Positions 20,469 through 36,226 of a stretch of 64,000 nt of DNA are shown in pieces. The position numbers and the translations under genes were made by a program. The stretch is taken from positions 22-64,021 of the forward strand of contig JAVBPD010000033.1 of NCBI GenBank assembly GCA_031549885.1, in the 5' to 3' direction. Origin of the DNA: Clostridiaceae bacterium. GTDB taxonomy: Bacteria > Bacillota > Clostridia > Clostridiales > Clostridiaceae. Every line of letters starts with the position of its first letter. Position 1 is the stretch's first letter. The notes beneath the pieces are model-generated. The model had not been told where the DNA came from. It made no database searches and saw nothing but the letters and a program-made list of their open reading frames with translations.

Positions 20469-20620
20469 AAACTTCTCAATTCCTTAACAATTATTTTTTT
20501 AAATTTTAGTATTCTCTAAAACTTTAAATTTTACTATCTTTATATAACAACATCATCATAGCAGAAAATTATATTTAAATCTACTAAACTATAAACTAAC
20601 ATTTTACCTTACTCTTATAA

Positions 20621-20784: not shown

Positions 20785-22518
20785 GTGGTTGTTGTGAATT
20801 CAATTTATTTAAACTATGAAAGAGTTCAATATGTGCTTGAAACCATATCAAATATTTTAAACCTGCATATTGAAATGGTTGATGATTCTCTAATAAGAGT
20901 TTGTGGAACTGGTATACTTAAAAAACATATTGGAGAAAAAGTAGTTTTAAATGGTATAGTTTCACAATTATTGGTTGATCAAAAATGCACAAAAGCTATA
21001 ATCATTGACAAAGACAAAGATGAACAATGTAAAATTTGCATGGCAACAAATAACGGTATATGCAGATACAAAAAAGCTGTATTTCAAACCATAGAATTTG
21101 AAAACAAAATCATTGGAGCTCTCGGAATTGCAAGTATGGATATCGATGATGACAAAGAGTTTTTAAAACATAGCGAAACTGCTCTATGGAAACTTTTAGA
21201 AAAAATGAGCAACCTTGTTTTCACTTGTATTGAGGACAGTAAAACATTAAAGCAACTTGAATATTCTAATGAAATTATTTCTAAAATCATAAATAAAACT
21301 GATGCAGGTATATTAATATTAGATGAATTTGCTAGAATTCAGTACATGAACGATTTTTGTGAAAAAAAGTTCTATATAAATCGAAACGATTGTCTAAATA
21401 AAAACATCAAAACAATTTTACCAGGTCTTGATTTAAATAAAAATAAAAATAAACTAAACTATAATGGAAAAAATATAGACTATAAAATAGAAAATATAAA
21501 AAATGAGCTAGATTGTATGAAAAAATCTATAATATATCTTACTAATACTAAAGAATCAACCGATAATTATCCCATTAATAATATGAACAACATTTGGAGC
21601 ATTGATAATGATTTTTTAGATTTCAAAAACTTAGTTTTACAGTTCTCTAAAACAGAATCAACTATCTTACTAGTAGGTGAAACAGGTACTGGAAAAGAGC
21701 TATTTGCCAAATCAATTCATGACAATAGTACACGATCAAACAATCCTTTTATTGTAATAAATTGCAATACAATACCAGATTCTTTAATTGAAAGCACGCT
21801 ATTTGGATATGAAAAAGGTTCTTTTACAGGTGCAAGCACAACAGGAAAAGAAGGTAAATTTTTTGCGGCAAATAACGGTACAATATTTTTAGATGAGATT
21901 GAAGCTATTCCTTTACATATTCAAACAAAATTATTAAGGGTGATAGAAAATCGCACTATTGAAAAGGTTGGTGGCATTAAAGAAATTCCTATAAACATTA
22001 GAATTATTGGAGCTACAAACATTTCACTAGAAAAGCTTGTTGAAGAAGGTAAATTTAGAGAAGATTTATACCACAGACTTAATGTTGTAACTTTAAATAT
22101 ACCTCCACTTAGAGAAAGAAGAAAAGACATTCTATTTCTAGCTACAAAGTTCTTAGAAGTCCAAGCAAAAAATCTAGAAAAAAACATACATGGCCTTGAT
22201 GAAGAATTAAAAAATATATTTTTAAATCATCGTTGGAAAGGAAATGTACGTGAATTAAAAAATGTAATCGAATATGCAGCTATTCTTGAAAAATCCGAAT
22301 ATTTAACTAAGAGTTCTCTTCCTAAAAACTTTTTTATACCAAAAGCAGTACAACAAATTAAGACAATGGCTGAAACAGAAAAAGAACAAATTCTTCAATG
22401 CCTAAAGATATATGGGTGTACAAATGAAGGAAAACAAAATGCTGCAAGTGCCCTTGGTATAAGCCGTGCAACTTTATACAGAAAAATAAAAGAATACTCT
22501 ATTTCTGTTTTTGAATAA
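20785..22518 (+). CDS. Sigma-54-dependent transcriptional activator (bEBP): N-terminal sensor, PAS-like region, AAA+ domain, Fis-type HTH
   Basis: Walker A GETGTGKELFA, sigma-54 contact loop GYEKGSFTGA, RVIENRTIEKVGG, C-terminal AASALGISRATLYRKI. GTG start at 20785 or 20794. Confidence 0.9.
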   Translation: MVVVNSIYLNYERVQYVLETISNILNLHIEMVDDSLIRVCGTGILKKHIGEKVVLNGIVSQLLVDQKCTKAIIIDKDKDEQCKICMATNNGICRYKKAVFQTIEFENKIIGALGIASMDIDDDKEFLKHSETALWKLLEKMSNLVFTCIEDSKTLKQLEYSNEIISKIINKTDAGILILDEFARIQYMNDFCEKKFYINRNDCLNKNIKTILPGLDLNKNKNKLNYNGKNIDYKIENIKNELDCMKKSIIYLTNTKESTDNYPINNMNNIWSIDNDFLDFKNLVLQFSKTESTILLVGETGTGKELFAKSIHDNSTRSNNPFIVINCNTIPDSLIESTLFGYEKGSFTGASTTGKEGKFFAANNGTIFLDEIEAIPLHIQTKLLRVIENRTIEKVGGIKEIPINIRIIGATNISLEKLVEEGKFREDLYHRLNVVTLNIPPLRERRKDILFLATKFLEVQAKNLEKNIHGLDEELKNIFLNHRWKGNVRELKNVIEYAAILEKSEYLTKSSLPKNFFIPKAVQQIKTMAETEKEQILQCLKIYGCTNEGKQNAASALGISRATLYRKIKEYSISVFE

Positions 22519-22539
22519 TAATCAGGTGAGGTGTGATTT

Positions 22540-23844
22540 TTGGAAATAATATTAAGCCAAGATATTAAAATGAAGCAAAGACTTATGTTAACACCTATGC
22601 AGCAGCATTCTTTAAATATTTTACAAATGCCTCTAATAATTCTTTGTGAAAATATTTCAAAGGAACTAAATGAGAACCCATTTTTAGAAATTGAAAATGA
22701 GGATAAATACAGCATTTCAAATTCAGAATATAAAAATAAATCTCCATTAGATACACAAGATAAATTTAATTTTCTTCAAGAAAAAAAAACATTAAAAGAT
22801 CATTTAATTGAACAAGCGGGCTATTTAAAAGAATCTCCAAATACTATTAAAATAATTTATTACATCATTGAAAATATTGATAAAAAAGGTTATTTTCATG
22901 AAACAGCGTCTGAACTTGCAAAAGAATTAAAAATTCATGAAAAATTAGCTGATTATGCCATAAAAAAAGTACAAGATTTTACCCCTGATGGTGTTTGTGC
23001 AAGAAATCTTGAAGAGTGTTTATGTATACAATTGCGAAAAAAAAATTATACTGATGAAAAACTATATGAACTTGTAAATAATTATCTTTTATTAATGTCT
23101 AAGAATAAGATAAAGGAACTAGCATGTAAGCTTAATTTAAAATCTTCAACTGTGTTAAAATATTGCAATATAATAAAATCTTTAGAGCCTAAACCTTCTA
23201 GAGGATTTTACAATGAAACAAATGTCTATATAATACCAGAAGCTTTTATAAATATAATGGACTCTGAAATTATAATATCAATTAATGACGATTTTTTACC
23301 AGATATTAAGTTATCAAAATATTATAAAGATATTATGAAAAATGTAAACGATGATAAGACAAAAGAATATCTAAACAATAAACTAAATTCAGCTAAAAAC
23401 TTGCTAATTTCTTTAAACAATAGACGTAAAACTTTAACTAAAATATTAGAGCATATTGCAATTATACAAAATGATTATTTTTTAAAAGGTGATAAGTATT
23501 TGAAGCAAATGTCCTTTAAAGACATTGCTCAAAGAATTGGAATCAATGAATCAACTGTAAGTCGAGCAATAAAAGATAAATTTATTCAAACTCCTGTTAA
23601 AATAATAAAAATAAAGGATATGTTTTCAACAGGGTATGACACCATTAATATTTCATCAAAGATGTTAAAAAACGAAATTAAATTAATTATACAGAATGAA
23701 AATAAAGAAAAACCTTTATCTGATAGTGAAATTAAATGTATTTTAGAAAATCAAAATTATAACATTTCTAGAAGAACAGTAGCCAAGTATCGTGAAAGCC
23801 TTGGCATACTGTCATCATCTGGGAGAAAACAATATATTACATAA
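22540..23844 (+). CDS. rpoN: RNA polymerase sigma-54 factor
   Basis: N-terminal region I (MKQRLMLTPMQQHSLNILQMP) and C-terminal RpoN box ISRRTVAKYRESLGI. About 430 aa. TTG at 22540 has a GGTGAGGTG ribosome-binding site; ATG at 22570 is an alternative start. Confidence 0.9.
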   Translation: MEIILSQDIKMKQRLMLTPMQQHSLNILQMPLIILCENISKELNENPFLEIENEDKYSISNSEYKNKSPLDTQDKFNFLQEKKTLKDHLIEQAGYLKESPNTIKIIYYIIENIDKKGYFHETASELAKELKIHEKLADYAIKKVQDFTPDGVCARNLEECLCIQLRKKNYTDEKLYELVNNYLLLMSKNKIKELACKLNLKSSTVLKYCNIIKSLEPKPSRGFYNETNVYIIPEAFINIMDSEIIISINDDFLPDIKLSKYYKDIMKNVNDDKTKEYLNNKLNSAKNLLISLNNRRKTLTKILEHIAIIQNDYFLKGDKYLKQMSFKDIAQRIGINESTVSRAIKDKFIQTPVKIIKIKDMFSTGYDTINISSKMLKNEIKLIIQNENKEKPLSDSEIKCILENQNYNISRRTVAKYRESLGILSSSGRKQYIT

Positions 23845-23874
23845 ATATATAAAATTAAATACTGGTATATTAAG

Positions 23875-23946
23875 AGCACATTGAATAGCTGATGAATATG
23901 GGGGCATATCGCTGCATTCAAGTAAAAGTGCTTTTATATTTTTTAT
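23875..23946 (+). terminator. Imperfect long hairpin plus T-run after rpoN
   Basis: AGCAC/GTGCT and TTGAAT/ATTCAA stems with internal loops, followed by TTTTATATTTTTT. Confidence 0.45.
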
Positions 23947-23954
23947 ATAATAAA

Positions 23955-24671
23955 CTAAGCAATTCCTAAATACATTTTGCGTATGCTATCATCATTTTTT
24001 ATAGTGCCACTATCTCCATGCATAACAATTCTTCCATGTTCTAAAACATATGCGCTATCAGAAATTTCAAGTGTTGTATTGACATTTTGCTCAACAATCA
24101 ATGTGGTAACATTATCCTTCTTTAATTTCATTAGTGTTTCAAATACAAGTACAACATTTTGAGGTGAAAGCCCCATAGAAGGTTCATCAAGCATAATCAT
24201 TTTAGGATTTGCCATTAATCCCCTTGCTATAGCAAGCATTTGGCGCTCCCCTCCAGACATAGTTCCTGCAAGCTGCTTTTTACGTTCAAAGAGCCTTGGA
24301 AATAGTGAATACACATATTCTAAATTTGATTTTATTTTTGCACTATTTCTTATTGTATAAGCACCTAATACTAAATTATCTTCTACAGTCATTGAAATAA
24401 ACAAATTTCTTTCTTCTGGCACAAAACATAACCCTAGATTTATAAGCTCATGAGATTGATATTTTGATAAATCTTTATCACAAAAAAATACCTTACCTGA
24501 TTTTGGTTTTAAAATACCTCCAATAGTCTTTAAAATTGTTGTTTTACCTGCGCCATTTGAACCTAAAAGCGCCACTATTTTTCCATCTGGAATATTTAAT
24601 GAAACATCCCATACAACTTGCAAATTCCCATATGCAATATTTAAATTGTCAACTTTTAGTATAGAAATCAC
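23955..24671 (-). CDS. livF: Branched-chain-amino-acid-type ABC transporter ATP-binding protein (LivF-like)
   Basis: GSNGAGKTT, LSGGERQMLAIARGL, LDEPSMGLSP. Confidence 0.85.
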   Translation of the reverse strand: MISILKVDNLNIAYGNLQVVWDVSLNIPDGKIVALLGSNGAGKTTILKTIGGILKPKSGKVFFCDKDLSKYQSHELINLGLCFVPEERNLFISMTVEDNLVLGAYTIRNSAKIKSNLEYVYSLFPRLFERKKQLAGTMSGGERQMLAIARGLMANPKMIMLDEPSMGLSPQNVVLVFETLMKLKKDNVTTLIVEQNVNTTLEISDSAYVLEHGRIVMHGDSGTIKNDDSIRKMYLGIA

Positions 24672-24707
24672 CCCCTAAATTAGTAATTTCCCATTTTAGC
24701 ATACTTT

Positions 24708-25439
24708 TTAAAGCATGTAATTATCACCTAAATAGGCCTTAATAACTTTTTCATTTGAAACAATATCTTTTGGTATCCCTTCAGCAAGCAATTCACCAAA
24801 ATAAAGCACTGCAATTTTATCACAAACCTCCATAATAAGCTTCATCAAATGTTCAACAATAATTATGGTTACATTTAAAGATTTCCTTACTTTTTTGATA
24901 AGTGTAGTAATATCATTAAGCTCACTAGGTGTTAATCCTGCCGCAACCTCATCTAATATTAAGACTTTGCAATTTGCAGTTAGTGCTCTTGCAAGTTCGA
25001 TTTGCTTTAATTGTACAGTGTTTAAATTTCTTGCAAGAGTCATAGGATCTTGCATAAAACCAACAAATTCAAGGTTCTCTAAGGCCCTTCTTTGAGCTTC
25101 TTCACTAGATTGATGCCCTGCAAAGATACCTCCTACCATAACATTTTGAGCTGCAGTAAAGTCAGGCAACGATTTTACAATTTGAAAAGTTCTACATATT
25201 CCAAGCTGCGCAATCTTATGTGGTTTTAATCCCTTAATATTTTTGCCATTATATAAAATAGTTCCTTGTTCAGGGTTATGCGTACCCAAAATGCAATTTA
25301 ACAAGGTAGTCTTTCCTGCACCATTTGGTCCAATAAGCCCATAAATACTTCCTTCTTCCACTGAAATAGTTACATTTTTATTAGCTTGAAGACCACCAAA
25401 AGATTTAGATACAGAATTTAGTTCCAGTATATTGGGCAT
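24708..25439 (-). CDS. livG: Branched-chain-amino-acid-type ABC transporter ATP-binding protein (LivG-like)
   Basis: SFGGLQA, GPNGAGKTT, ILDEVAAGL. Confidence 0.85.
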   Translation of the reverse strand: MPNILELNSVSKSFGGLQANKNVTISVEEGSIYGLIGPNGAGKTTLLNCILGTHNPEQGTILYNGKNIKGLKPHKIAQLGICRTFQIVKSLPDFTAAQNVMVGGIFAGHQSSEEAQRRALENLEFVGFMQDPMTLARNLNTVQLKQIELARALTANCKVLILDEVAAGLTPSELNDITTLIKKVRKSLNVTIIIVEHLMKLIMEVCDKIAVLYFGELLAEGIPKDIVSNEKVIKAYLGDNYML

Positions 25440-25451
25440 TTTTTTACCCCC

Positions 25452-26765
25452 TTATTTAACGTAGTCTGGTATTACAACATCTTGCTCTTTTTGATTTGCA
25501 GGCCAAACAGGATGCATTTTTCCATCTAAATATTGTATAACTGGGAACATATAATAATCTTGTCCAACTTCCATATCCGGGAAATTTTCAGATGTAAATT
25601 TATATTCTTTATGAACAACTCCATCTGTATAAGTGAGCTTTCCAGTCATTACTTGCTCTTCAGCACACTTCATAAGGTTTTCTGTTGTAAGTTCACCATA
25701 TGTTTCATTAGTTGTTTGAAGAACTTTTATAAAATAATTTGTCCAGTCATAGCACATACCTGCAGTTGATGGACTTGGGTCCATATTAAATTTTGTCTTA
25801 AAATCTTCAACAAACTTTTTAGCCTTATCTGATGTGTATAGTGGAATTTGATCAATTATATAATTCGATGCTTCCCCTGTTAATTCATACCATTCTCCTA
25901 CCCATCCAAGTCCATCCATTATTATCATAGAAGGTAAATTTAACTCTTTTGATTGTTTAATAAATGAAGAACTTGCAGGTGCATCTGACATTGTTCCTAC
26001 CATTAAGCTAACTTCCTTAGATTTAAATTTGTTTAATAGTGGATAATACTCTGTTTCTCCAATTGGAACCCATTCTTCATCTACACATGTCCATCCTTTA
26101 GCTTCAAATGATTCTTTTACAGTTGACCCAAACATTCTTCCCCAGTCTTGGTCAACTCCAAATACTGCAAAGTTTTTATTTTTAGGAGTCCAAAGGCCTT
26201 TTTGTATAGCCTCTTCAATTGTTTCAACATATCCATCTACTAGCTTAGATGGAGTTGGCCATGCTTTTCCTACCCAATATTTATATTTTTCAGGATCTTT
26301 TTGATATTTTTCATTTACTTCAATTCCTGCTCCAAAACTGAAAAAATGAGGCATTTTATACTTTGCTGCAACTTCCATACATGCAACTGATACCCAGCTG
26401 TTCCAATCCATGAAGCCTACATCTATTTTATCTTGAGTAATTGCACGTTCATAAGCTCTAGTAGCTTTTTCAGCATCAGATTCATCATCTATATATACAA
26501 TCTCAATTTTATAATCTCCAACTTTATAATTAATTGCTTCAAATGCCATTTGTGCAGCAGCTTTAAATTCATCACCTACACGAGCCCCTGGTCCTGTAAA
26601 TGGTCCCATCATGCCTACTTTTAAAACCTTTTCACCGCTTCCTGCATTTGCAAAAGCTGATGAATCCGAACCATTTCCTGATTCTGTTTTAGGAGCGCAT
26701 CCGGAAATTGTTGTTAATAAAACCATGCCAAGCATACCAGCAATAACCTTTTTTAACATATACAA
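25452..26765 (-). CDS. LIV-type ABC substrate-binding lipoprotein (periplasmic binding protein type 1)
   Basis: Lipobox LTTISGC. LKVGMMGPFTGPGARVGDEF is typical of LivJ/K-like binding proteins. Confidence 0.8.
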   Translation of the reverse strand: MYMLKKVIAGMLGMVLLTTISGCAPKTESGNGSDSSAFANAGSGEKVLKVGMMGPFTGPGARVGDEFKAAAQMAFEAINYKVGDYKIEIVYIDDESDAEKATRAYERAITQDKIDVGFMDWNSWVSVACMEVAAKYKMPHFFSFGAGIEVNEKYQKDPEKYKYWVGKAWPTPSKLVDGYVETIEEAIQKGLWTPKNKNFAVFGVDQDWGRMFGSTVKESFEAKGWTCVDEEWVPIGETEYYPLLNKFKSKEVSLMVGTMSDAPASSSFIKQSKELNLPSMIIMDGLGWVGEWYELTGEASNYIIDQIPLYTSDKAKKFVEDFKTKFNMDPSPSTAGMCYDWTNYFIKVLQTTNETYGELTTENLMKCAEEQVMTGKLTYTDGVVHKEYKFTSENFPDMEVGQDYYMFPVIQYLDGKMHPVWPANQKEQDVVIPDYVK

Positions 26766-26784
26766 AACCCCTCTTTATTAATTT

Positions 26785-27771
26785 TTATATAACTTTTTTT
26801 CCAAATTTATATTTTAAACTCTCAATAAATCCTGCAATACCTTTTGGATAATAAATCATAATCATAATCATTAGCAGCCCATAAAGTATAATCCTAAATT
26901 CCATAAGACCTTTCATATAATCCATTACAGGTATTAGCACAATAGCACAAAGTAAACTGCCCCATATTTTACCACGACCTCCAATATAAGCAAGCGCCAT
27001 TATTTCCACAGTATTGCTTGTTTGGAATAATTTAGGTAATATAATGCCAGAAAAATGAGCATAAAAAGCTCCAACAAGTCCTCCTATTGCACAAGAAAGT
27101 GTAAAATTTATAATTTTATATTTACTAGGGTCAATTCCAGCTGCTTGAGCTGCTTCAACATCTTGTCCTATGGCTCTAAAGGCTGTACCAATATTTGATT
27201 TTGTAATAACCATCAAAGCTATATATACAGCAATTAGTATTATAAACAAGGTATAGAATATCCCAGTATAAGTTGTTGCATCTATTAATGGATCTACACC
27301 TAATCCTTTTGAACCATCTGTTAAAGAAACCCAGTTTGTGGCAACTGCAAATAATGCAAGTGCCACAAACCAAGTCATACATGATGCAAAAATTCCTCCA
27401 AGTCTTATGGTTAAAAGTCCCAGTAAAAAACCAGCTATCCCTGCTGTTATAAATCCACAAAAAAGGCCAATCCATGGACTCATTCCTAATTTTGTAGAAA
27501 GTATTGCGCTAGTATAAGCCCCAATGCCCCAAAATGCCGAAAAGCCAAAATTTGTAATATTTATAAATCCAGAAGTAAAATCAAATGCCATTGCAAATAC
27601 GCCATACATCATTGCTGATATCATAAGCCTTACAATTGCATTATCTGTTACGAATATGGGTATAAGACCAAGTAATATCAATGAAATTAATCCTACAGGT
27701 GTAAGACCTACTCTTTGTAAATTATTTCTCATGCTAGGATAAAGGCTAGCTCTCTGTAAATCAGTTTTCAT
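26785..27771 (-). CDS. livM: LIV-type ABC permease (LivM-like)
   Basis: Polytopic. Gene order and FGFSAFWGIGAYTSA-type motifs. Confidence 0.8.
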   Translation of the reverse strand: MKTDLQRASLYPSMRNNLQRVGLTPVGLISLILLGLIPIFVTDNAIVRLMISAMMYGVFAMAFDFTSGFINITNFGFSAFWGIGAYTSAILSTKLGMSPWIGLFCGFITAGIAGFLLGLLTIRLGGIFASCMTWFVALALFAVATNWVSLTDGSKGLGVDPLIDATTYTGIFYTLFIILIAVYIALMVITKSNIGTAFRAIGQDVEAAQAAGIDPSKYKIINFTLSCAIGGLVGAFYAHFSGIILPKLFQTSNTVEIMALAYIGGRGKIWGSLLCAIVLIPVMDYMKGLMEFRIILYGLLMIMIMIYYPKGIAGFIESLKYKFGKKVI

Positions 27772-27791
27772 TCAACATTAATCCCTCCTCA

Positions 27792-28691
27792 TTATTCAAC
27801 AGCACTCTTAACACCTTTTTTACCAAAAAGACCATTAGGTTTCACAAGTAGGATAATAATAATAATGCCAAGGCTTATAAGATCCATCCAACCAGAACTA
27901 AAAATGTTTACAGCAACTGTCTCTAAAAATCCTACTATTAATCCACCTACAATTCCAGCCTCCACATTTCCCATACCTACAAGTATTAATACAAACCATG
28001 ATTTATTTAAAGCAGATATACCCATAAGTGGATTAGCAGGAATAATTGATAACAAACATGCTCCTGCTATTGCTGCAAGTGAACAGCTAAGTGCAAATGT
28101 AAGAGTATAAATAAAGCTTAAATTTACGCCAATAAGTTTTGCACCAATTGGATCTTGTGAAACTGCTCTTATAGCTTTTCCTGTTCTTGTATAGTTTAAA
28201 AAATACATAAGAGCTGCAATGGATATAATTGAAACAGCAAAAGCAAAAATCCTATCGTTAGCAACGCTCATTCCAAGAACTTTAAATGAACCATTAAAAT
28301 ATCCTTGTTTAATACCATAGTTTTTAGAACCAGCAATAAGCCTCATTGATTGTTGCATTATGATTGAAAGTCCAAGGGTTAAAAGAAAAGTGTTCATAAG
28401 CCAATTTTTTTGACTTTTCTTTCTTAAAGGTACAAAAAGAACTCTTTCAACAAGTATCCCAAAGATAAAAACAAACACTCCAGCAGCTAAAACGCTGAGT
28501 ATAGGATTAAGCCCTAAAACTATAAATGCAAAATAAGATACAAATGCACCTAACATATAAAATTCACCGTGTGCAAAATTTGCAATATTTATTACACCAA
28601 ATACCAGCGAAAGCCCCACAGCCATCAAGGAATAAAAGCTCCCCCTTAGAATAGAAGTTATAAGTGCATCAACAATATCCAAAAACATCAC
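27792..28691 (-). CDS. livH: LIV-type ABC permease (LivH-like)
   Basis: GSFYSLMAVGLSLVFGVINIANFAHGEFYMLGAF is a typical LivH N-terminus. Confidence 0.8.
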   Translation of the reverse strand: MMFLDIVDALITSILRGSFYSLMAVGLSLVFGVINIANFAHGEFYMLGAFVSYFAFIVLGLNPILSVLAAGVFVFIFGILVERVLFVPLRKKSQKNWLMNTFLLTLGLSIIMQQSMRLIAGSKNYGIKQGYFNGSFKVLGMSVANDRIFAFAVSIISIAALMYFLNYTRTGKAIRAVSQDPIGAKLIGVNLSFIYTLTFALSCSLAAIAGACLLSIIPANPLMGISALNKSWFVLILVGMGNVEAGIVGGLIVGFLETVAVNIFSSGWMDLISLGIIIIILLVKPNGLFGKKGVKSAVE

Positions 28692-28697
28692 CTCTTT

Positions 28698-29918
28698 TTA
28701 TAGATTTTTTACTCCTTCTCTTAAATACTTATTAAGATCTTCTATTGACATATTATCAAGGCCAAGATAGCTAAGCGTATACCCACCTTTAGTCAGGTCT
28801 TTCTTTGAGATAGCATTTGCAAGATGAATCATTGAATCAACCACTGGAGTTTCTACACCATATTTTTTTCCAAGTTGACTATAAACAAAACAACCTACAG
28901 GAATATCCTCAGTTATATAACGGTTTTCCATATTAAATGGACCTGTGCCAAATTGAATTGGATCTTGTGCATCAAATGGAATTAAATAATTAAGTCCCAT
29001 ATATTCTTGACCTAAGACATTTTCACGTGAGAAGAAATGCTCTCTTTCATATGGTTGTATGCCTACTCCTAATTTACTGGCAATCTCGCACTCTTCTAAG
29101 TAAAAGCTGTACTGCACTTCTGAAATAGAATTACAATATGCATGTGAATAAATCGAAAATTTATGTTTGTCATCCCCAAATATCTTTCCATAGTTTTCCA
29201 TTGTAGAGACGCCTAAGATTGTTCCAGGGCAATGAAGTACAGGGTTAACATTAGATAATCCAATGTCTAAAGCAGTATCTCCTTTTACAACTCCATCTCC
29301 TTTTGTAACACCATCCATAGAAGGTAAGAAATTAGCGGTTTCTAAAAAGTCATCTGTATCACAAGCTGGCATTGCAGCTCCTCTTAAAGTTATGGCTCTA
29401 TAATAAACTCTTATTTTATGGGTTATAACACCACCATAAATATCTACTCTTGATCCATATGTCGACGATGACCATCCTCCAACTATGACATTTTTAGTGC
29501 AGTTAGCTTCTTTCATCATTTTTCTAAGTAAAATTGATCCAAAATTATCTGGGAATATGTGTATAACTTGACCATCCTCCAAACATGGTATTAACTTTTC
29601 AAAGAATGGTTTATGTCCAAATGTAGGGGTTCCAATTACTATTATTCCTGCACCCTTAACAGCTTCAGCAACGTCAGTGGTTACTAATTCCATTTTTGCA
29701 AATCCTTCACGTTCAAACCCGTATAAATTTACCTGTTCACCATAAAATTTAATTCCAACTTCTTTAATATTTTTTAATGTTTTTGTTGCAAATGGTTCAA
29801 CATCGCATATTCTAACTTTAGCACCACCGAGTGCACAATCTCCAGCAATTGCTTTTGATACAGCACCAGCTCCTAATACTGCAATAGATTTTTCTTTTAA
29901 ATAATCAAATTTTCCCAT
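28698..29918 (-). CDS. NAD(P)-dependent opine (octopine/nopaline) dehydrogenase-family protein
   Basis: Rossmann motif IAVLGAGAVSKAIAG. The downstream NPVLHCPGTILG motif resembles the opine-dehydrogenase helical domain. ATG at 29918 has a GGAG ribosome-binding site. Confidence 0.6.
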   Translation of the reverse strand: MGKFDYLKEKSIAVLGAGAVSKAIAGDCALGGAKVRICDVEPFATKTLKNIKEVGIKFYGEQVNLYGFEREGFAKMELVTTDVAEAVKGAGIIVIGTPTFGHKPFFEKLIPCLEDGQVIHIFPDNFGSILLRKMMKEANCTKNVIVGGWSSSTYGSRVDIYGGVITHKIRVYYRAITLRGAAMPACDTDDFLETANFLPSMDGVTKGDGVVKGDTALDIGLSNVNPVLHCPGTILGVSTMENYGKIFGDDKHKFSIYSHAYCNSISEVQYSFYLEECEIASKLGVGIQPYEREHFFSRENVLGQEYMGLNYLIPFDAQDPIQFGTGPFNMENRYITEDIPVGCFVYSQLGKKYGVETPVVDSMIHLANAISKKDLTKGGYTLSYLGLDNMSIEDLNKYLREGVKNL

Positions 29919-29940
29919 AAAACACACTCCAAGTTAATAT

Positions 29941-30570
29941 TTATTTAATTAAACTTTTACAAAGCATTACTGCACCACCTGCATCATCTGAATAGCCATC
30001 AGAATTAATTACCTTTGCAAATTCTTCAGAAACAGGAGCTCCGCCAACAATAACTTTTACATCTTTAAACTTATCTTTAATCGCTGCAACAGTTTCTTTC
30101 ATTGCACTCATGGTAGTAGTTAAAAGCGCTGAGAGCCCAACAACATCTGGTTTTTCTTTTTCACAAGCTTCTAAGAAGGTATTAGCGTCTATATCAACAC
30201 CAAGATCGATAACTTTAAATCCGCTTACTTCAAGCATCATGCCAACCAAATTTTTTCCAATATCGTGCAAATCACCTTGTACAGTGCCAATAACAACTGT
30301 TCCAGCAGTACTAATATCACTATCGTTTAATAATGGTTTTATTTCATCAAGTCCCATTTTCATTACATCAGCAGACATCAAAACTTCTGGTATAAACATT
30401 TCACCTGATTCCATTCTAGGTCCAACGATATCCATAGCTGGTATTAAGCCTTTATTTAAAATATCGTTTGCACTTATACCATTATCTAAAGCTTCCTTTA
30501 CAAGTGACACTATTTCTTCATCATCACCATTTATTATACAATTTGTTATTTTTAATAATTGTTCTGACAT
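29941..30570 (-). CDS. Cobalamin-binding corrinoid protein (MtgC/MttC-like)
   Basis: B12-binding DxHxxG motif in GDLHDIGKNLV. About 210 aa with a helical cap plus Rossmann-like domain. AGGAGG ribosome-binding site. Confidence 0.85.
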   Translation of the reverse strand: MSEQLLKITNCIINGDDEEIVSLVKEALDNGISANDILNKGLIPAMDIVGPRMESGEMFIPEVLMSADVMKMGLDEIKPLLNDSDISTAGTVVIGTVQGDLHDIGKNLVGMMLEVSGFKVIDLGVDIDANTFLEACEKEKPDVVGLSALLTTTMSAMKETVAAIKDKFKDVKVIVGGAPVSEEFAKVINSDGYSDDAGGAVMLCKSLIK

Positions 30571-30581
30571 AATACAACCTC

Positions 30582-31388
30582 CTAAAAATCTAATAATCCA
30601 TTTCTAAATGCTTTTAAATATCTCTTTGTAAATTTATCTCTATTTAATAGAGCCTCTGCGCTATAAATCATAGCCATCATTCTTTTATTGCCTGGATCTA
30701 AAATAGCTCCATCAAGCCCTGCCATTATGCAAAGAGTCAAAAATGTTGAATTTAAAATTCCTCTTTTGGGCAGTCCATAAGAAACATTGCTAAGCCCACA
30801 CATAAAATGTACTTTTGGTTTTTGTGCTACAATTCCTTTAATAGTTTCAATTACTATTACTCCCATGTCCGGAGATGAACTTATTGGCTGAACAAGCGGA
30901 TCCATGAAAATGTCTTCACAAGAAACTCCATCCTCATTAAGCCTATTAATTAATTCAAGCCCAACTTTTACCCTCAAATCTGAAGTTTTAGGCATTCCAA
31001 ATTCATCACTTATGACTAAAGACACGATTTTACCCTTATATTTTTTTACAAGAGGTATTATCCTTTCATAACGCTCATTTTCATTGGTAATAGAATTAAT
31101 CATTGGTACACCTTTGTGTACTTTTAGTGCTGCTTCTAATGCTTCTGGATCTGGGCTATCAATACAGCATGGTAAATTCACAGTTTTTTGAACCGTTTCT
31201 ACAAGCCATGGCAAAGCTTCTACCTCTTCATCAACTAGCGTACCACAATTTACATCGATATAATTTGCTCCAAAATCTGCTTGATATTTTGCAAGATTAG
31301 AAATAAACTCCTCATCTCTTGCAAGCACCGCTTCTGTAACTCCTTTTAAACTTGTATTGATTTTTTCTCCAACAATAATCAAGTTCAT
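30582..31388 (-). CDS. Methylcorrinoid:tetrahydrofolate methyltransferase (pterin-binding, MtgA/MtrH-like)
   Basis: MNLIIVGEKINTS...GANYIDVNCGT is typical of pterin-binding TIM barrels. ATG at 31388 is preceded by AAAGGAGG. Confidence 0.75.
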   Translation of the reverse strand: MNLIIVGEKINTSLKGVTEAVLARDEEFISNLAKYQADFGANYIDVNCGTLVDEEVEALPWLVETVQKTVNLPCCIDSPDPEALEAALKVHKGVPMINSITNENERYERIIPLVKKYKGKIVSLVISDEFGMPKTSDLRVKVGLELINRLNEDGVSCEDIFMDPLVQPISSSPDMGVIVIETIKGIVAQKPKVHFMCGLSNVSYGLPKRGILNSTFLTLCIMAGLDGAILDPGNKRMMAMIYSAEALLNRDKFTKRYLKAFRNGLLDF

Positions 31389-31455
31389 AACCTCCTTTTT
31401 GCCTTTCAAAATATATAGTAGCAATTTCTATGCCTGATTCACTTTCTTTAAAAAA

Positions 31456-32868
31456 TTAATTGATTTTTTCTAAAATACTTTTATCAACTCCAATTTCAAC
31501 CATATATTCATCAAGCTTATCGATGCTGTTTAATTCAGGTTTTTTATAGCTTTCTAAAGCATAATTAGCCTGTGCCCTTAGCTCCTCTGTAAATATTTCA
31601 TTTGCATCTTTATCTTTAGGCACTTTTTTATTTTTACTTACAAGTGGAACCCAAGGGTCTTTTCTAATTCTTTTAAAAGTATGATTATGAGATATAAAGT
31701 TTTTTCCATTAGATGCATCTCTTATGGCATCTAATGCTAATGTCTGGTCATTTACTTCAAGGTCTGAGAAATAATACTGCATTCTTGAAATTGTTTCAAT
31801 GTCTAAAACAAACTTTTCATAGCTCATTGCAGAAAAAGAATCTAAAATGCCAGCAGCATGCATTACAAAATTACCATTTTGAGAAAATGTCTCAAAAATA
31901 CCCATTGCGCTTTCTACCCCAGCTTGCGCACCTACTGCTTTAGCATCTGTTAATGGCCCCCCTGATCTCTTTGGAAATCCATATTTTTCCGAAAGCATTG
32001 CGCCATACTTTGCTTGCTTAGAAAACCCAGGAGATCCAATAGAAACATTCATTGTGGACATGTTTGAAACTGTAGCTGCAAATCCATATACAATAGGAGT
32101 TCCTGGGTTTATAATTTGTGCAAGTGCCATACAAGCTAAGAACTCTGCATTAGCAAGTGCAACATTTCCAGCAAGTGAAATTGGTCCTGTAGCTCCTGCC
32201 ATACATCCTGGAGCTATTATTATAGGTTGATTATTAGAAGCCATTAAATTTAAGGAATCAATCATATTTTTATCTATCATAAGCGGGCTAAGTGGTGAAA
32301 TTAATGTAATTATCCTATAGTTATTTTTAAGATCGTTTTCATCTTCAAATGTTATTTTCACCATATTGATGATATCTTCAACTGATTTTTTAGATCCTGC
32401 TATTCCCAATATGCATTTGTCAGAAAGCTTAATGCTTGAATAAATCATCACTTGATTGCCAATAGATGCATCAATATCATTTGGCTGGGCTAAAATTCCA
32501 CCATTTATTTTAAAAACATCATTCACATGTGTAAGCTTTGCGAAATTAATAAAATCCTCTAAAAGCGCTAACCTTTGATTTCCATTTTGCTGAGCTATTT
32601 TAGCGCACCCAAAGCCTGGCGAAAAATTCATAGTTTTATCACTTATATGCATATCAAATTTATTGTTTCTTGCTTTAATGGTAAACTCTTTTTTAGCCAT
32701 ATTTAAATATTTATTAATTTGATCTTCAGTAAAAAACGCTCTTTGGCCTTCTACTTTTATGCCGTTTTTCTTAAGGAGCTCACATATTTCTGCGCTTTGA
32801 AATTCCATTCCAATTTCTTCTAGTATTTTTATAGAAGCATTGTGAAGCTTTTCAATTTTATTTTCCAT
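31456..32868 (-). CDS. MttB-superfamily (trimethylamine methyltransferase family) protein, non-pyrrolysine, paralog 1
   Basis: 470-aa uninterrupted ORF. N-terminal IEKLHNASIKILEEIGMEF and an MttB-like core. GGAGG ribosome-binding site. Confidence 0.85.
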   Translation of the reverse strand: MENKIEKLHNASIKILEEIGMEFQSAEICELLKKNGIKVEGQRAFFTEDQINKYLNMAKKEFTIKARNNKFDMHISDKTMNFSPGFGCAKIAQQNGNQRLALLEDFINFAKLTHVNDVFKINGGILAQPNDIDASIGNQVMIYSSIKLSDKCILGIAGSKKSVEDIINMVKITFEDENDLKNNYRIITLISPLSPLMIDKNMIDSLNLMASNNQPIIIAPGCMAGATGPISLAGNVALANAEFLACMALAQIINPGTPIVYGFAATVSNMSTMNVSIGSPGFSKQAKYGAMLSEKYGFPKRSGGPLTDAKAVGAQAGVESAMGIFETFSQNGNFVMHAAGILDSFSAMSYEKFVLDIETISRMQYYFSDLEVNDQTLALDAIRDASNGKNFISHNHTFKRIRKDPWVPLVSKNKKVPKDKDANEIFTEELRAQANYALESYKKPELNSIDKLDEYMVEIGVDKSILEKIN

Positions 32869-32910
32869 TTATACACCTCCATTTAATAATTCCAATATAA
32901 CTTCTTATAA

Positions 32911-32926
32911 AGCATTTTTTATACCA
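32911..32926 (-). promoter_or_regulatory. Candidate sigma-54 promoter for the MttB1 operon
   Basis: The minus strand reads TGGTATAAAAAATGCT. GG and GC have the correct N10 spacing, but flanking positions match the consensus poorly. Lies about 45 nt upstream of the MttB1 ATG. Confidence 0.45.
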
Positions 32927-32976
32927 AACATGAAATATGAAAAAAAATTATTATTAAATTTTAAATAATTCATTTA

Positions 32977-32991
32977 TGGCATGCAATTTGC
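32977..32991 (+). promoter_or_regulatory. Predicted sigma-54 promoter for the panB-MttB2-racemase operon
   Basis: The plus strand reads TGGCATGCAATTTGC (consensus TGGCACG-N4-TTGC). Lies 58 nt upstream of the ATG at 33049. Confidence 0.7.
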
Positions 32992-33048
32992 TTAATAATC
33001 ATATATTAAAGTCTTTATAAAATAATTATAGAAAGTGAGATTATAAAA

Positions 33049-33894
33049 ATGAAGAAAAAGACAATTCTAGATTTATTTGATATGAAGAAAAAAAAGGAGA
33101 AACTCACTTGGATAACAGCTTATGATTTTCCTATGGCTTCCTTTGCAGAACAAGCTGGAATGGATATGATACTTGTAGGTGATTCACTAGGAATGGTAGT
33201 TTTAGGTTATGATGGCACCGTACCTGTTACTATGGAAGATTGCATAAGCCATTGCCAAGCAGTTAGAAGAGGAGCTCCTAATACATTTGTAATGGGAGAT
33301 ATGCCTTTTGGTTCTTATCAAGTAAGCGCAGAAGAAGCAGTTAAAAATGCAGTTCGCTTTATTAAAGAAGCAAATATGGATGCTGTTAAATTAGAAGGCG
33401 GAAGAGTTGTACTTAATCAAATAAAGGCAATAAGCGATGCTGGTATTGTAGTTTGTGGCCATATTGGTCTTACTCCTCAAAGCTCAGGACAACTTGGAGG
33501 TTTTAAAGCTCAAGGAAGAACTGTGCAAGCTGCAAGAGAATTAATAAGAGATGCTATGGAAATTGAAAAAGCAGGTGCAAGGCTTCTTCTTCTTGAAGCA
33601 ATACCTCCTGAAGTTACAGAATTCATAGCAAATAAACTTACGATACCAGTATATTCAATAGGTGCTGGTCTCCCTTGTGATGGGCAATTAACTATATGCG
33701 GAGATATGTTAGGGATGTTCCAAGCATTTACTCCTAAATTCGTGAAAAAATATGCTAATGTAGCAGAAGTTATAACAAACGCATTTAAAGAGTATGTTAA
33801 AGATATTAAAGAAGAGAAATTCCCTGAAGATAAACATGTTTACCACATTTTAGATGACAAAAGTGATTTTGAAAAAATGTTTCAAGAATTTTAA
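33049..33894 (+). CDS. panB: 3-methyl-2-oxobutanoate hydroxymethyltransferase (ketopantoate hydroxymethyltransferase)
   Basis: Strong resemblance to E. coli PanB along its whole length: TAYD, LVGDSLGMVVLGYD.T.PVT, AVRRGAPN, VKLEGG, CGHIGLTPQS. Confidence 0.85.
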   Translation: MKKKTILDLFDMKKKKEKLTWITAYDFPMASFAEQAGMDMILVGDSLGMVVLGYDGTVPVTMEDCISHCQAVRRGAPNTFVMGDMPFGSYQVSAEEAVKNAVRFIKEANMDAVKLEGGRVVLNQIKAISDAGIVVCGHIGLTPQSSGQLGGFKAQGRTVQAARELIRDAMEIEKAGARLLLLEAIPPEVTEFIANKLTIPVYSIGAGLPCDGQLTICGDMLGMFQAFTPKFVKKYANVAEVITNAFKEYVKDIKEEKFPEDKHVYHILDDKSDFEKMFQEF

Positions 33895-33939
33895 TAAAGC
33901 TTTTGTCTCAAATTGATATAGAGAGGTAGAATAGATATA

Positions 33940-35373
33940 ATGAAAAATTACAGTATTGAAAGGAATATAAACTTCTCTGTTATGTCTCAATCTGATATTG
34001 AGATGATACATGAGAAGAGCTTAGAAGTATTAGAAAGGATTGGTATGAAAATTTCTGGCCAAAGGATGCTCACGCTTTTAAAAGAAGCTGGTGCTACCCT
34101 TGATGGAGAAATAGTTAAAATACCTAGATCTATGGTTGAAAAGGCTCTTAAATCTGTTCCAAAGGAAGTAATAATATACAATAGAAGTGGAGAACCCCAT
34201 ATTATATGCAATAGCAAAAACAATGTATACTTTGGCACACATGCAGATCAACTTGAAATAATTGATCCTTATACCGGAAAGACTCGTAAGTTTTTAAAGA
34301 AAGATACTGAGCTTATGTGCAAAATTGCAGACTTTTTACCAAATATAGATTTTGTTTTATCTGTAGGTTTATCAAGTGATATAGATCCAAAAGTTCAATC
34401 TCAAGTTAGTTTCATTGAAACGGTTAAACACTTTTCAAAGCCAATTAACTTTTCAACTAATAATATAGAATCTCTTCAAGAGATAATTGATATTGCAGCT
34501 ATTGTAGCAGGTGGCAAAGAAAAGCTTCAAGAGAAACCTTTTGTATTTAACTATTGTGAACCAATACCACCGCTTACTCACCCAATTGAGAGCACAGAAA
34601 AGCTTTATATAAGTGCAGAAAATAAAATTCCAGTTGTTTATATGCCATATTGCATGATGGGTGGAACATCTCCAATTAAAAAAGCAGTAACTTTAATACA
34701 ATGTAACTCTGAACTTTTATGCGGTATAGTTATGACTCAGCTTGTAAATGAAGGAGCGCCATTTATTTACGGAGCTATGCCTTCTGTATTTGATATGAAA
34801 ACCAGCATAGGAAGTTATGCTGCACCTGAATTCCATTTGATGATCGCTGCAGCTTCTGAAATGGCTAATTTTTATGGAGTACCATTCTATGGAACGGCAG
34901 CATCAAGCGATTCAAAAAGCCATGATGCACAAATGTTTACAGAAACCTCCTACGAAATTTTATCAACTCTTTTGAGTAAAGCTAATATTGTTCATGATGT
35001 AGGCATATCAGATCACTGCAATAGCGTTTCACCAGTATCCGTAGTTATTGCAAATGAAACTATAGAAATGTTAAAACATTATTCAAAAGGCTTATCGTTT
35101 GACGAAGCTGACCTTGATTTATCCATCTTAGAAGAAGTAGGTCATGGTGGACATTATTTAAATACAAAACAAACCCGTAAGAATTTTAAATCCATATGGT
35201 ATCCTGAATTATTTAGCAGAAAGATGAAAAACCCTGATGATTCTGAGGTAATTCAAAATGCAGTTAATAAAATTAAACATATTTATGAAAATCATAAGGT
35301 TCAGCCTTTAGATGAGTCTATACTCAATAAATTAAATGAAATGCAGAAAAAATATGAGGATTCAGTAAAATAA
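33940..35373 (+). CDS. MttB-superfamily protein, non-pyrrolysine, paralog 2
   Basis: 477-aa uninterrupted ORF. N-terminal IEMIHEKSLEVLERIGMKI parallels paralogs 1 and 3. Confidence 0.85.
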   Translation: MKNYSIERNINFSVMSQSDIEMIHEKSLEVLERIGMKISGQRMLTLLKEAGATLDGEIVKIPRSMVEKALKSVPKEVIIYNRSGEPHIICNSKNNVYFGTHADQLEIIDPYTGKTRKFLKKDTELMCKIADFLPNIDFVLSVGLSSDIDPKVQSQVSFIETVKHFSKPINFSTNNIESLQEIIDIAAIVAGGKEKLQEKPFVFNYCEPIPPLTHPIESTEKLYISAENKIPVVYMPYCMMGGTSPIKKAVTLIQCNSELLCGIVMTQLVNEGAPFIYGAMPSVFDMKTSIGSYAAPEFHLMIAAASEMANFYGVPFYGTAASSDSKSHDAQMFTETSYEILSTLLSKANIVHDVGISDHCNSVSPVSVVIANETIEMLKHYSKGLSFDEADLDLSILEEVGHGGHYLNTKQTRKNFKSIWYPELFSRKMKNPDDSEVIQNAVNKIKHIYENHKVQPLDESILNKLNEMQKKYEDSVK

Positions 35374-35384
35374 GGAGGCGCATT

Positions 35385-36173
35385 ATGTTTTATCAAAGTA
35401 GAGACCTTAAAATAGATTATATGAAAACTCGTAAAAACCACACTTGCTATGGCATGGGCATAGGCATTATGGTTTTAGATGATGCTTATCCTGGTTTTCC
35501 TGGTGATGTAAGAAATGCTAGTGGATTTGGCTATCCTATTCAATATGAAATAGCCGAAGGTGTTGATAATTATACTTTAGTTTGGGAGCAAGATAAAACA
35601 CCTTGCAGAGAACCAATTTTAAGAGCTGCAAAGAAACTTGAAAAAATGGGATGTCGTGCTATTGCTGCTGAATGTGGATATTTTGCTTATTTCCAAAAAG
35701 ATGTTGCAGGCCATGTAGATGTACCTGTATTTATGTCAAGCCTTCTTCAAGTTCCTTTTATACAACAGCTTATAGGGCCTAAAAATTACGTTGGAATAGT
35801 TTGTGCTCAAAAAAGATTTTTAACTGATGTTCATCTTACTAATGTGGGAATTGATTTAAACAGCAACTTCAAAATTGCTGGAGCTCAAGATGAATATGGC
35901 TGCCCTCAATTTGATACTCTATGGGATCATGAAAAAAGGCCAGAAATTCCTGAAAGTTATTACAATAAGTCTGAAGAAGATATGATTAAAATATGCAAGG
36001 CATTTATTCAAAAAAATCCTGAGATAAAAGCTCTTATGTTAGAATGTACGGGAATGCAGCCTTACGCAAGAGCAATACAAAGAGAGCTTGACCTTCCAAT
36101 ATTTAGCTGGGGTACTCTTTTAGATTATGCTTATTCAGTTATAAATCATAGAGAGTATTATGGACATATTTAA
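35385..36173 (+). CDS. Asp/Glu/hydantoin-racemase-superfamily protein
   Basis: IGIMVLDDAYPGFPGDVRNA N-terminus and two candidate catalytic Cys contexts (AAECGYF and LECTGMQ), as in two-thiol racemases and arylmalonate-decarboxylase relatives. Confidence 0.55.
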   Translation: MFYQSRDLKIDYMKTRKNHTCYGMGIGIMVLDDAYPGFPGDVRNASGFGYPIQYEIAEGVDNYTLVWEQDKTPCREPILRAAKKLEKMGCRAIAAECGYFAYFQKDVAGHVDVPVFMSSLLQVPFIQQLIGPKNYVGIVCAQKRFLTDVHLTNVGIDLNSNFKIAGAQDEYGCPQFDTLWDHEKRPEIPESYYNKSEEDMIKICKAFIQKNPEIKALMLECTGMQPYARAIQRELDLPIFSWGTLLDYAYSVINHREYYGHI

Positions 36174-36191
36174 ACCTTATTTATACCTACA

Positions 36192-36226
36192 AAAATAAGT
36201 GCATAATTATTGCACTTATTTTTTAT
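36192..36226. terminator. Bidirectional rho-independent terminator
   Basis: Perfect 12-bp stem AAAATAAGTGCA/TGCACTTATTTT, 7-nt loop, with A- and T-runs on the two sides. Confidence 0.75.

Follow-up and report, generated by a model that had tools for sequence, protein, structure and literature searches.

We analysed a 64,000-nucleotide stretch of DNA from a Clostridiaceae bacterium (GenBank assembly GCA_031549885.1, contig JAVBPD010000033.1, positions 22 to 64,021 of the forward strand; hereafter the window), in which an initial annotation, made from the sequence alone, had described a nine-gene candidate sigma-54 operon that couples an MttB methyltransferase system lacking pyrrolysine (non-Pyl) to an opine-dehydrogenase-family NAD(P) oxidoreductase (ODH) and a LIV-type ABC importer. 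Comparison with related genomes revealed that the window is an ordinary member of a widespread, uncharacterised module. Judged by conservation, the core of this module is the ODH together with a distinct class of MttB (type A, MttB2 in the window), while the MttB of the nine-gene run (MttB1) and the LIV importer are an exchangeable front end. We consider it moderately probable that the module imports an N-methylated amino-acid betaine, the best candidate being of the proline-betaine type, and demethylates its nitrogen onto tetrahydrofolate via a corrinoid protein.

Conserved core and exchangeable front end

By scanning species-representative genomes with the ODH as anchor, 199 loci were found and 80 retrieved; the window proteins were compared with the six-frame open reading frames (ORFs) of the retrieved loci, and the main counts refer to 39 loci with full 10-kb flanks. 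An ODH of 65–92% identity is present in at least 199 species-representative genomes of Bacillota, Desulfobacterota, Synergistota, Spirochaetota and Calditrichota, and its more than 120 relatives at 67–92% identity include those of Acetobacterium, Eubacterium, ‘Ca. Formimonas’, Syntrophaceticus, Deltaproteobacteria, Synergistales and Lachnospiraceae. Of the relatives of MttB1, one is close (79% identity) and the others reach at most 53%. The arrangement, of which the initial annotation knew no described case, turned out, when conservation of the nine-gene neighbourhood was checked, to be no one-off fusion but a module of at least 199 species genomes. The identical nine-gene set in the same order, at 79–93% identity, was found in a Clostridiaceae metagenome-assembled genome (MAG; loci L001/L007) and subsets of it recur in dozens of genomes, so that the grouping of these genes goes beyond chance. 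The components occur in the full-flank loci as follows.

ODH: 39/39
MttB2 orthologue (51–90% identity): 33/39
Another MttB: 34/39
Racemase-like protein (65–97% identity): 32/39
Sigma-54-dependent activator: 30/39
PanB (54–92% identity): 30/39
Corrinoid protein: 23/39
Pterin methyltransferase: 13/39
BCCT transporter: 20/39
LIV-type ABC importer: 10/39
BCCT transporter and LIV-type importer in one locus: 0/39

A third transporter type, the OpuC/OpuAC betaine ABC system (OpuAC, 186 bits), was detected in Syntrophomonadaceae-like loci. The LIV importer was therefore rejected as a defining feature of the module, as other loci have it swapped for a BCCT transporter, which is twice as common, or for an OpuC-type one; a close relative (L008), for example, carries another Arg-containing (type B) MttB gene and a BCCT transporter in place of MttB1 and the LIV system. 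Between Bacillota, Desulfobacterota and Synergistota, the PanB, ODH and racemase-like proteins share 65–80% identity, suggesting strong constraint and/or horizontal spread as a unit. Annotated examples of the module are those of A. woodii, Geosporobacter and strain DCMF, and Sporomusa has the module too; a metagenome scan with MttB2 yielded five short loci, two of which show the same neighbours.

Two lineage-specific versions were also observed. That of gut Lachnospiraceae (MAG loci L087/L088) has the order PanB-ODH-MttB-MttB-BCCT with a divergent IclR regulator, a racemase-like gene and a 307-aa gene, and is paired with the IclR regulator in place of sigma-54 control; its ODH protein occurs in hundreds of assemblies (563 indexed blocks of the assembly collection), with DUF1638 and DUF3786 genes nearby. 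The Acetobacterium/Eubacterium loci (L005, L014, L018–L028, L034) carry further genes 3′ of the corrinoid protein gene, which are kept in 11–13 loci and encode an EamA exporter, a methyltransferase of UroD/MtaA-like type whose tail is thioredoxin-like, and a CobW metallochaperone.

Two classes of MttB

The MttBs were compared with the reference structures of D. hafniense MtgB (9YCE/2QNE) and MttB (7XCM), and 112 MttBs from module loci were aligned by MAFFT. MtgB holds glycine betaine by Y97 and F356 through cation–pi contacts and by R312 and H348 at the carboxylate; R312 is conserved in MtcB, MtpB, MthB and MtyB, four enzymes that do not keep the aromatic pair (PMC13080624). In MttB1, F86/R301/H337/F345 take the positions of Y97/R312/H348/F356, i.e. 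the pocket is MtgB-like with an aromatic residue kept at position 97, and a Leu stands at the Pyl334 position. Against D. hafniense MtgB, MttB1 scored 324 bits at about 38–40% identity, and it is no closer to this protein than are the other Arg-containing MttBs of the module (32–40%). Since the bacterial MtgB of D. hafniense and the archaeal one of M. vulcani are 65% identical, the identity of MttB1 is too low for a place inside the tight clade of verified MtgBs, and that placement was rejected. Checked against MtgB and MttB, MttB1 thus has an MtgB-like pocket yet lies outside the tight MtgB clade.

MttB2, also encoded by an uninterrupted ORF, has Tyr317 at the Arg312 position and Ser322 at the pyrrolysine position. 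All 54 MttB2 orthologues carry Tyr or Phe for Arg312, whereas MttB1 and the other accessory MttBs keep the Arg. The type A signature of these orthologues, [A/S/N]-Y/F-H-C-[C>T,S,A], comprises Cys for F356, the His kept at the H348 position and mostly Cys at the pyrrolysine position, and in MttB2 the glycine-betaine quartet is missing (H or A, then Y/H/C). Ten residues, namely H101, D103, C206, E207, H214, H299, H352, D353, H359 and C360, are invariant in the 54 type A proteins, and all of them except H352 are absent from the Arg-containing MttBs. The type A active-site loop, PFYGTAAS-SDSK, resembles that of the pyrrolysine MttB, PSYVAGS-O-SDAK, and the Pyl-MttB model gave 353 bits with MttB2 versus 224 bits with MttB1. 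The type B partners are variable, with YRHF, VRHF, SRQF and other signatures and 28–52% identity to MttB1. By these sequence features, MttB2 is the conserved methyltransferase partner of the ODH and MttB1 an Arg-containing type B accessory methyltransferase, the MttB1-like genes being variable among loci. The central place that the initial annotation gave to MttB1 is thus not borne out, as the ODH partner conserved across loci is MttB2, which that annotation left out.

A third, very divergent MttB-family gene is located at 42228–43622 (plus strand) of the window, downstream of an EamA-type transporter gene (40884–41891). Its 464-aa product (PF06253, 135 bits) is 20–26% identical to MttB1, MttB2, MtgB and MttB, lacks Arg at the R312 position and contains a Cys-rich loop, INCTVCGITCDN.

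ODH, PanB and the racemase-like protein

The ODH is linked to MttB-family genes in every case and is extremely conserved among anaerobes. It has an N-terminal Rossmann fold (NAD_Gly3P_dh_N, 23 bits; motif VLGAGAV) and matches Arthrobacter CENDH (1BG6) with 76 bits (E = 2e-20); its His232/Arg336/Asp341 align with His202/Arg292/Asp297 of CENDH and are invariant in 12 homologues. The match to PF02317 and this catalytic triad bear out the family assigned to it initially, and with the two-domain layout they lead one to expect NAD(P)-linked chemistry on a C–N bond beside a carboxylate. PanB, a module-specific copy of the ketopantoate hydroxymethyltransferase family, gave 213 bits with E. coli PanB (1M3U) and is 65–73% identical across the phyla; it keeps the motifs VGDS, GDMPF, VKLEGG, CGHIG and LEAIP, which we take to surround the catalytic residues as in the E. 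coli enzyme. The racemase-like protein falls in the PRK07475 subfamily, itself uncharacterised, and has invariant C97 and C221 in ECG and ECT motifs (AAECG, LECTG). Its AlphaFold2 model (pLDDT 72) bears a weak Foldseek resemblance (TM 0.35–0.5) to Asp racemase, arylmalonate decarboxylase and allantoin racemase, and a weak one to Glu racemase as well; this backs the superfamily weakly and points to no specific function.

PanB and ODH could instead act outside demethylation as mere neighbours of the methyltransferases, either in a pantoate branch, with the ODH as ketopantoate reductase, or, for racemase and ODH, in the making of an opine-type metallophore. This would agree with the canonical sequence of PanB, with the weak ApbA/PanE-type Pfam matches of some ODH homologues and with the EamA and CobW genes of the Acetobacterium-type loci, a racemase, opine dehydrogenase, EamA exporter and CobW together recalling the staphylopine and pseudopaline clusters. 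However, the ODH keeps the His/Arg/Asp triad of opine dehydrogenases and not the residues reportedly catalytic in PanE, a nicotianamine-synthase-like gene is absent, and BCCT and OpuC transporters carry no metallophores. The ODH is moreover tied most tightly to the type A MttB, with which it is predicted to be co-transcribed under one sigma-54 promoter in five phyla, and we regard a role outside demethylation as very improbable.

Candidate substrate and proposed pathway

The lead to the substrate comes from the gene that accompanies the ODH. Of the 44 loci whose flanks extend 8 kb or more to each side of the ODH, 33 carry the racemase-like gene within 9 kb of it, while 7 loci without this gene carry a Pro_racemase gene (PF05544, 352 bits) or an OCD_Mu_crystall gene (162–169 bits, directly after the ODH), and none of the 44 has both the racemase-like gene and a proline-racemase/OCD gene within 9 kb. 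The closest NCBIfam model of the Pro_racemase genes is proline racemase, under its cutoff. The pattern looks like a non-orthologous displacement, which would link both the ODH and its racemase-like companion with the stereochemistry of proline-type compounds and with pyrroline-2-carboxylate as imine intermediate. The BCCT and OpuC transporters, being classical betaine systems, point to a quaternary substrate, and proline betaine is favoured because its two N-methyl groups match the two MttB classes. The general idea in the initial annotation, of betaine uptake and corrinoid-dependent demethylation with a dehydrogenase that processes a secondary-amine or imino-acid intermediate, fits the comparative evidence, while its nine-gene scope and the LIV system as the importer do not.

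In the proposed pathway, the betaine would be imported by the LIV-type ABC system, or by a BCCT or OpuC-type transporter in other genomes. MttB1, with its Arg and two aromatic residues, would move a methyl group from the quaternary nitrogen to the Co(I) corrinoid protein, and the pterin-binding methyltransferase would hand it to tetrahydrofolate. MttB2, whose Arg-less pocket has invariant His, Cys, Asp and Glu, would take the next methyl group from the resulting tertiary amine; the ODH would act on the C-alpha–N bond, interconverting the imino acid and its 2-imine/iminium form, and the racemase-like protein would set the C-alpha configuration.

It is conceivable, though doubtful, that the ODH and the Arg-less MttB2 together accomplish a pyrrolysine-independent demethylation of a non-quaternary amine. 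The ODH would oxidise an N-methylproline-type tertiary imino acid to the N-methyl-iminium, which has a permanent N+ charge; MttB2 would then move the iminium methyl to the Co(I) corrinoid, leaving neutral pyrroline-2-carboxylate, and this imine would be reduced to proline, by the ODH or, depending on the lineage, by an OCD-family reductase, so that the net reaction would be redox neutral, with the stereochemistry fixed by the racemase-like protein or a proline racemase. In a variant, a metal ion held by the invariant His and Cys of MttB2 would activate the amine. In both versions, the part that pyrrolysine plays in MttB would be taken by the chemistry of an imine or of a Lewis acid.

Several points weigh against the proline-betaine assignment. 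If the type A enzyme demethylated N-methylproline directly, the ODH would be superfluous, which makes the iminium idea attractive, if unproven. The main gap is PanB, canonical in sequence and present in 77% of the full loci, for which a proline scheme offers no function; families specific to proline occur in only about 13 of 86 related loci; and the OCD-family genes match alanine dehydrogenase and SbnB best in NCBIfam, all under cutoff, so that they are not assignable to pyrroline-2-carboxylate reductase. The MttB1 pocket is nearer to the glycine-betaine pocket than to that reported for MtpB, whose aromatic pair is not conserved. Nor is the division of labour between types A and B universal, since some modules have a single MttB beside a betaine transporter (L078) and others no type A protein (E. 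callanderi, L017). The assignment rests on sequence comparison, from which the functions of ODH and PanB and the substrate itself are inferred.

The MtgB-like pocket brings in glycine betaine as another candidate. MttB1 would then be an MtgB that yields dimethylglycine, MttB2 would demethylate dimethylglycine and/or sarcosine, and the ODH would split sarcosine into glyoxylate and methylamine, of which sarcosine is formally the ‘opine’. MttB1 keeps the MtgB binding quartet with one Tyr-to-Phe change, the top NCBIfam match of the corrinoid protein is MtgC, and the module-bearing strain DCMF has been reported to convert glycine betaine via dimethylglycine to sarcosine, with its dimethylglycine enzyme unidentified; Sporomusa, another carrier of the module, is said to use dimethylglycine and sarcosine. 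Yet glycine derivatives are achiral, which leaves the near-universal racemase-like gene, replaceable by proline racemase/OCD, without a role; glyoxylate is no PanB-type substrate; and MttB1 shares 38–40% identity with MtgB versus the 65% between archaeal and bacterial MtgBs. A. woodii and E. limosum, moreover, reportedly stop at dimethylglycine, though the genus or close relatives carry the module. We therefore rate glycine betaine as quite unlikely.

The frequent PanB genes speak for an acyclic L-amino-acid betaine, e.g. that of valine, alanine or homoserine. Two demethylations would yield an N-methyl-L-amino acid, the racemase-like protein would give its D-form, the ODH, being D-specific, would oxidise this to a 2-oxo acid and methylamine, and PanB would act on the 2-oxo acid, either hydroxymethylating 2-oxoisovalerate or cleaving 4-hydroxy-2-oxobutanoate to pyruvate and methylene-tetrahydrofolate; PanB is said to perform this cleavage, which could not be confirmed in the literature searched. 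This is the sole scheme that gives PanB a role, via the shared 2-oxo acid, and it would make the module self-contained, ending in central metabolites. PanB and ODH genes are adjacent and predicted to be co-transcribed in many loci, and the LIV-type importer of 10/39 full-flank loci would suit such a substrate. A racemase would make sense in this scheme, because the carboxyalkyl centre that enzymes of the ODH family form or oxidise has the D configuration. However, trimethyl betaines have three methyl groups whereas the modules typically have two MttB types, PanB is missing from about a quarter of the full-flank loci, and the replacement of the racemase-like gene by genes of the proline-racemase superfamily points to proline-type rings, so that an acyclic betaine appears unlikely and proline betaine remains our preferred substrate.

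Gene organization in the window

The gene calls in the window are based on an ORF listing with Pfam and NCBIfam profile searches. They bear out the nine minus-strand genes of the initial annotation in coordinates and families, including MttB, corrinoid protein and pterin methyltransferase as the three methyltransferase components, with intergenic gaps of 6–36 nt and an uninterrupted mttB1 without in-frame TAG. The nine genes are the following.

23955–24671, minus strand: LivF-type ABC ATPase (ABC_tran; best NCBIfam match LivF, 239 bits, under cutoff)
24708–25439, minus strand: LivG-type ABC ATPase (ABC_tran and BCA_ABC_TP_C; best NCBIfam match LivG)
25452–26765, minus strand: lipoprotein substrate-binding protein (Peripla_BP_6, 140 bits; lipobox ISGC)
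26785–27771, minus strand: LivM-type permease (BPD_transp_2, 121 bits)
27792–28691, minus strand: LivH-type permease (BPD_transp_2, 110 bits)
28698–29927, minus strand: ODH (Octopine_DH PF02317, 103 bits)
29941–30570, minus strand: corrinoid (B12-binding) protein (B12-binding and B12-binding_2; DxHxxG within GDLHDIG)
30582–31388, first listed to 31424, minus strand: pterin-binding methylcorrinoid:tetrahydrofolate methyltransferase (PRK07535, 328 bits, above cutoff)
31456–32868, minus strand: MttB1, non-Pyl MttB, 470 aa (MTTB PF06253, 358 bits)

MttB1 is full length without an internal stop, i.e. a non-pyrrolysine member. The pterin methyltransferase probably starts at the ATG at 31388 and not at the TTG at 31424, as the former is preceded by a ribosome-binding site, AAAGGAGG, and gives a protein of 268 aa as in homologues. 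The top NCBIfam match of the corrinoid protein is of the MtgC type, at 213 bits under the cutoff of 370. The LIV/HAAT-type importer is complete in one cluster, with two BPD_transp_2 permeases, two ATPases and the Peripla_BP_6 protein; all its scores with the LIV NCBIfam equivalogs are under cutoff, so that the importer need not be specific for branched-chain amino acids. The binding protein has remote relatives only in the PDB (at most 45 bits), and its orthologues in other modules are 45–66% identical. No terminator-like hairpin above chance was found inside the nine-gene run, and the window contains no prd or grd genes that would bear on the Stickland-type fermentation supposed initially.

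By conservation, however, the functional unit is about 20785–36173 of the window, of which the nine genes are only one arm. The panB-mttB2-racemase-like genes (33049–36173) and the activator gene, all more conserved with the ODH than MttB1 is, belong to the unit too, which the initial annotation had confined to nine genes. The features joined to these are listed below.

20785–22518, plus strand: sigma-54-dependent activator (Sigma54_activat 214 bits, AAA_lid_14, HTH_8; N-terminal sensor domain)
22540–23844, plus strand: rpoN, sigma-54 factor (Sigma54_AID, Sigma54_CBD, Sigma54_DBD)
33049–33894, plus strand: PanB, ketopantoate hydroxymethyltransferase family (TIGR00222, 328 bits versus cutoff 208)
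33940–35373, plus strand: MttB2, type A MttB (PF06253, 245 bits)
35385–36173, plus strand: racemase-like protein, Asp/Glu/hydantoin-racemase superfamily (PF01177, 31.4 bits versus cutoff 31; PRK07475, 272 bits)
36191–36223, plus strand: terminator-like hairpin closing the plus-strand operon

The intergenic region between mttB1 and the divergent panB-mttB2-racemase-like operon is 180 bp. The rpoN gene lies directly 3′ of the activator gene, adjoining the module, and has the same place in L001/L007; in the closest relative its region (L001, 15637–16935) is split into three ORFs, possibly by frameshifts or assembly errors. The G+C content is 0.32–0.34 over the module (24000–36000) versus 0.26–0.28 at 20–24 kb, where the activator and rpoN genes lie; this contrast and the 65–80% identity of several module proteins across phyla are compatible with horizontal acquisition.

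A beta-aspartyl peptidase gene (19302–20636, minus strand; IadA equivalog, 445 bits) lies divergent from the activator gene, with an exact sigma-54-type site, TGGCAGCTATATTGC (20636–20622), in front of it, and could be part of the same regulon. As it was not found in related loci, it was not counted in the module. Farther off, two YfhO-family membrane proteins, paralogues of 917 and 929 aa encoded in tandem (4229–9903, minus strand), have a family-2 glycosyltransferase gene (9910–10875) as neighbour.

Sigma-54 promoters and transcription units

With TGGCAC-N5-TTGCW as consensus of the −24/−12 element and GG-N10-GC as its core, three apparent sigma-54-type promoters were located in the module.

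32977–32992, plus strand: consensus promoter before panB-mttB2-racemase-like, TGGCATGCAATTTGCT, exact match
32926–32911, minus strand: sigma-54-like promoter of mttB1, TGGTATAAAAAATGCT, GG-N10-GC, imperfect
31435–31420, minus strand: internal promoter before the pterin methyltransferase gene, AGGCATAGAAATTGCT, GG-N10-GC, near-consensus

L007 has counterparts of all three, namely TGGCATACTATTTGCT upstream of panB, CGGCACAAAAAATGCT before mttB1 and TGGCATAAAAATTGCT before the pterin methyltransferase gene. A loose sigma-54 pattern occurs 21 times in the window versus 16 expected, which is not above chance; it is the position and conservation of the sites, and not this count, that support sigma-54 control. 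Sites of this type are found just upstream of a module gene in 53 of the 86 related loci, usually the one that encodes the ODH or opens the ODH operon, and almost all have the strict form TGGCAY-N5-TTGCW, of which a rough estimate gives about 0.01 per locus by chance. Sigma-54 control of the module is accordingly well supported by sequence conservation, as had been supposed initially, and the activator and rpoN genes adjoin it. The single nine-gene operon is uncertain, as there are apparently three sigma-54-type promoters, one of them internal before the pterin methyltransferase gene; the nine genes may form two transcription units, with mttB1 transcribed on its own and the other eight, pterin methyltransferase gene through livF, together. 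A search for a shared upstream activator-binding motif among four sigma-54 promoter regions found none. A third exact TGGCA-N6-TTGC match (51624–51638, minus strand) lies inside a SAM hydroxide adenosyltransferase-family gene (51485–52324), some 0.5 kb before a sugar-type ABC operon, and has probably arisen by chance.

Significance and comparison with known systems

MttB enzymes decide the fate of quaternary amines in gut and sediment anaerobes, i.e. whether these are turned into harmless demethylated products or left for trimethylamine formation. The MttB2 subfamily lacks the Arg that holds the substrate in all characterised non-Pyl members, and its constant companion is an NAD(P) enzyme for C–N bonds. 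Solving the module would assign functions to several ‘hypothetical’, highly conserved families and would probably reveal a full anaerobic betaine demethylation, e.g. of dietary proline betaine to proline; possibly, it would show a new chemistry that activates tertiary amines without pyrrolysine.

The module is apparently undescribed, as no published description was found in the literature searched. As of 2025, six MttB-superfamily members have an identified substrate, each removing one methyl group, and no ODH, PanB or racemase figures in their descriptions (PMC12155760). Searches found no literature joining an opine/octopine dehydrogenase, racemase or hydroxymethyltransferase with MttB, corrinoid, betaine or Acetobacterium, and no paper on a corrinoid dimethylglycine or sarcosine methyltransferase; a paper on the Clostridiales sigma-54 regulon does not mention methyltransferases or betaines. 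The examined part of the proteome tables of E. limosum (gamma-butyrobetaine/lactate) and DCMF likewise does not mention opine dehydrogenase or PanB, a weak negative. For the link of sigma-54 with a non-Pyl mttB, of which the initial annotation knew no described case, there is a precedent: E. limosum mtcB and mtyB have divergent RocR-like regulators, i.e. sigma-54-dependent activators (PMC8604678). Those genes are alike to the module in having such an activator beside a non-Pyl mttB, whereas the module has identifiable promoters of its own, conserved across phyla, and an adjacent rpoN.

Among known systems, the MtgB-MtgC-MtgA system of Desulfitobacterium hafniense, Acetobacterium woodii and Methanolobus vulcani has the same trio of a non-Pyl MttB, a DxHxxG corrinoid protein and a pterin-binding methyltransferase; MttB1 has F/R/H/F for its Y97/R312/H348/F356 and the corrinoid protein has MtgC as top family. 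The described mtg clusters, however, lack an ODH, a racemase-like gene, a PanB and a second MttB without the Arg, MttB1 is only 38–40% identical to MtgB, and the corrinoid protein reaches 213 bits versus the 370-bit MtgC cutoff. The MtpB-MtqC-MtqA system of Eubacterium limosum likewise demethylates an imino-acid betaine anaerobically, by means of a non-Pyl MttB and cobalamin, with betaine-type transporters, and is set apart by its description, which includes no ODH, racemase or second methyltransferase; it reportedly removes one methyl group and stops at N-methylproline.

The aerobic pathway for proline betaine and hydroxyproline betaine in Paracoccus and Rhodobacter, with the racemase HpbD, the Rieske demethylase HpbB/C and the flavin demethylase HpbA, resembles the proposed scheme in combining a racemase/epimerase with separate enzymes for the quaternary and tertiary N-methyl groups and in ending in proline (PMC3950512). 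It differs in its enolase-superfamily racemase and its oxygenase and flavin demethylases, which need oxygen and release formaldehyde, and has neither ODH nor PanB. With the pyrrolysine MttB/MttC system, MttB2 shares the superfamily, a similar loop and the Tyr at the Arg312 position of MtgB, whereas it lacks pyrrolysine, has His for Tyr364 of MttB and is 27% identical to it. The opine dehydrogenases CENDH (1BG6), scallop octopine dehydrogenase and CntM have the Pfam family, two-domain layout and triad in common with the module ODH, which is distant from CENDH (76 bits) and always tied to MttB-family genes. By sequence, then, what is new here is a distinct, uncharacterised MttB subfamily and its set of accessory enzymes (ODH, PanB and the racemase-like protein) within a known kind of system.

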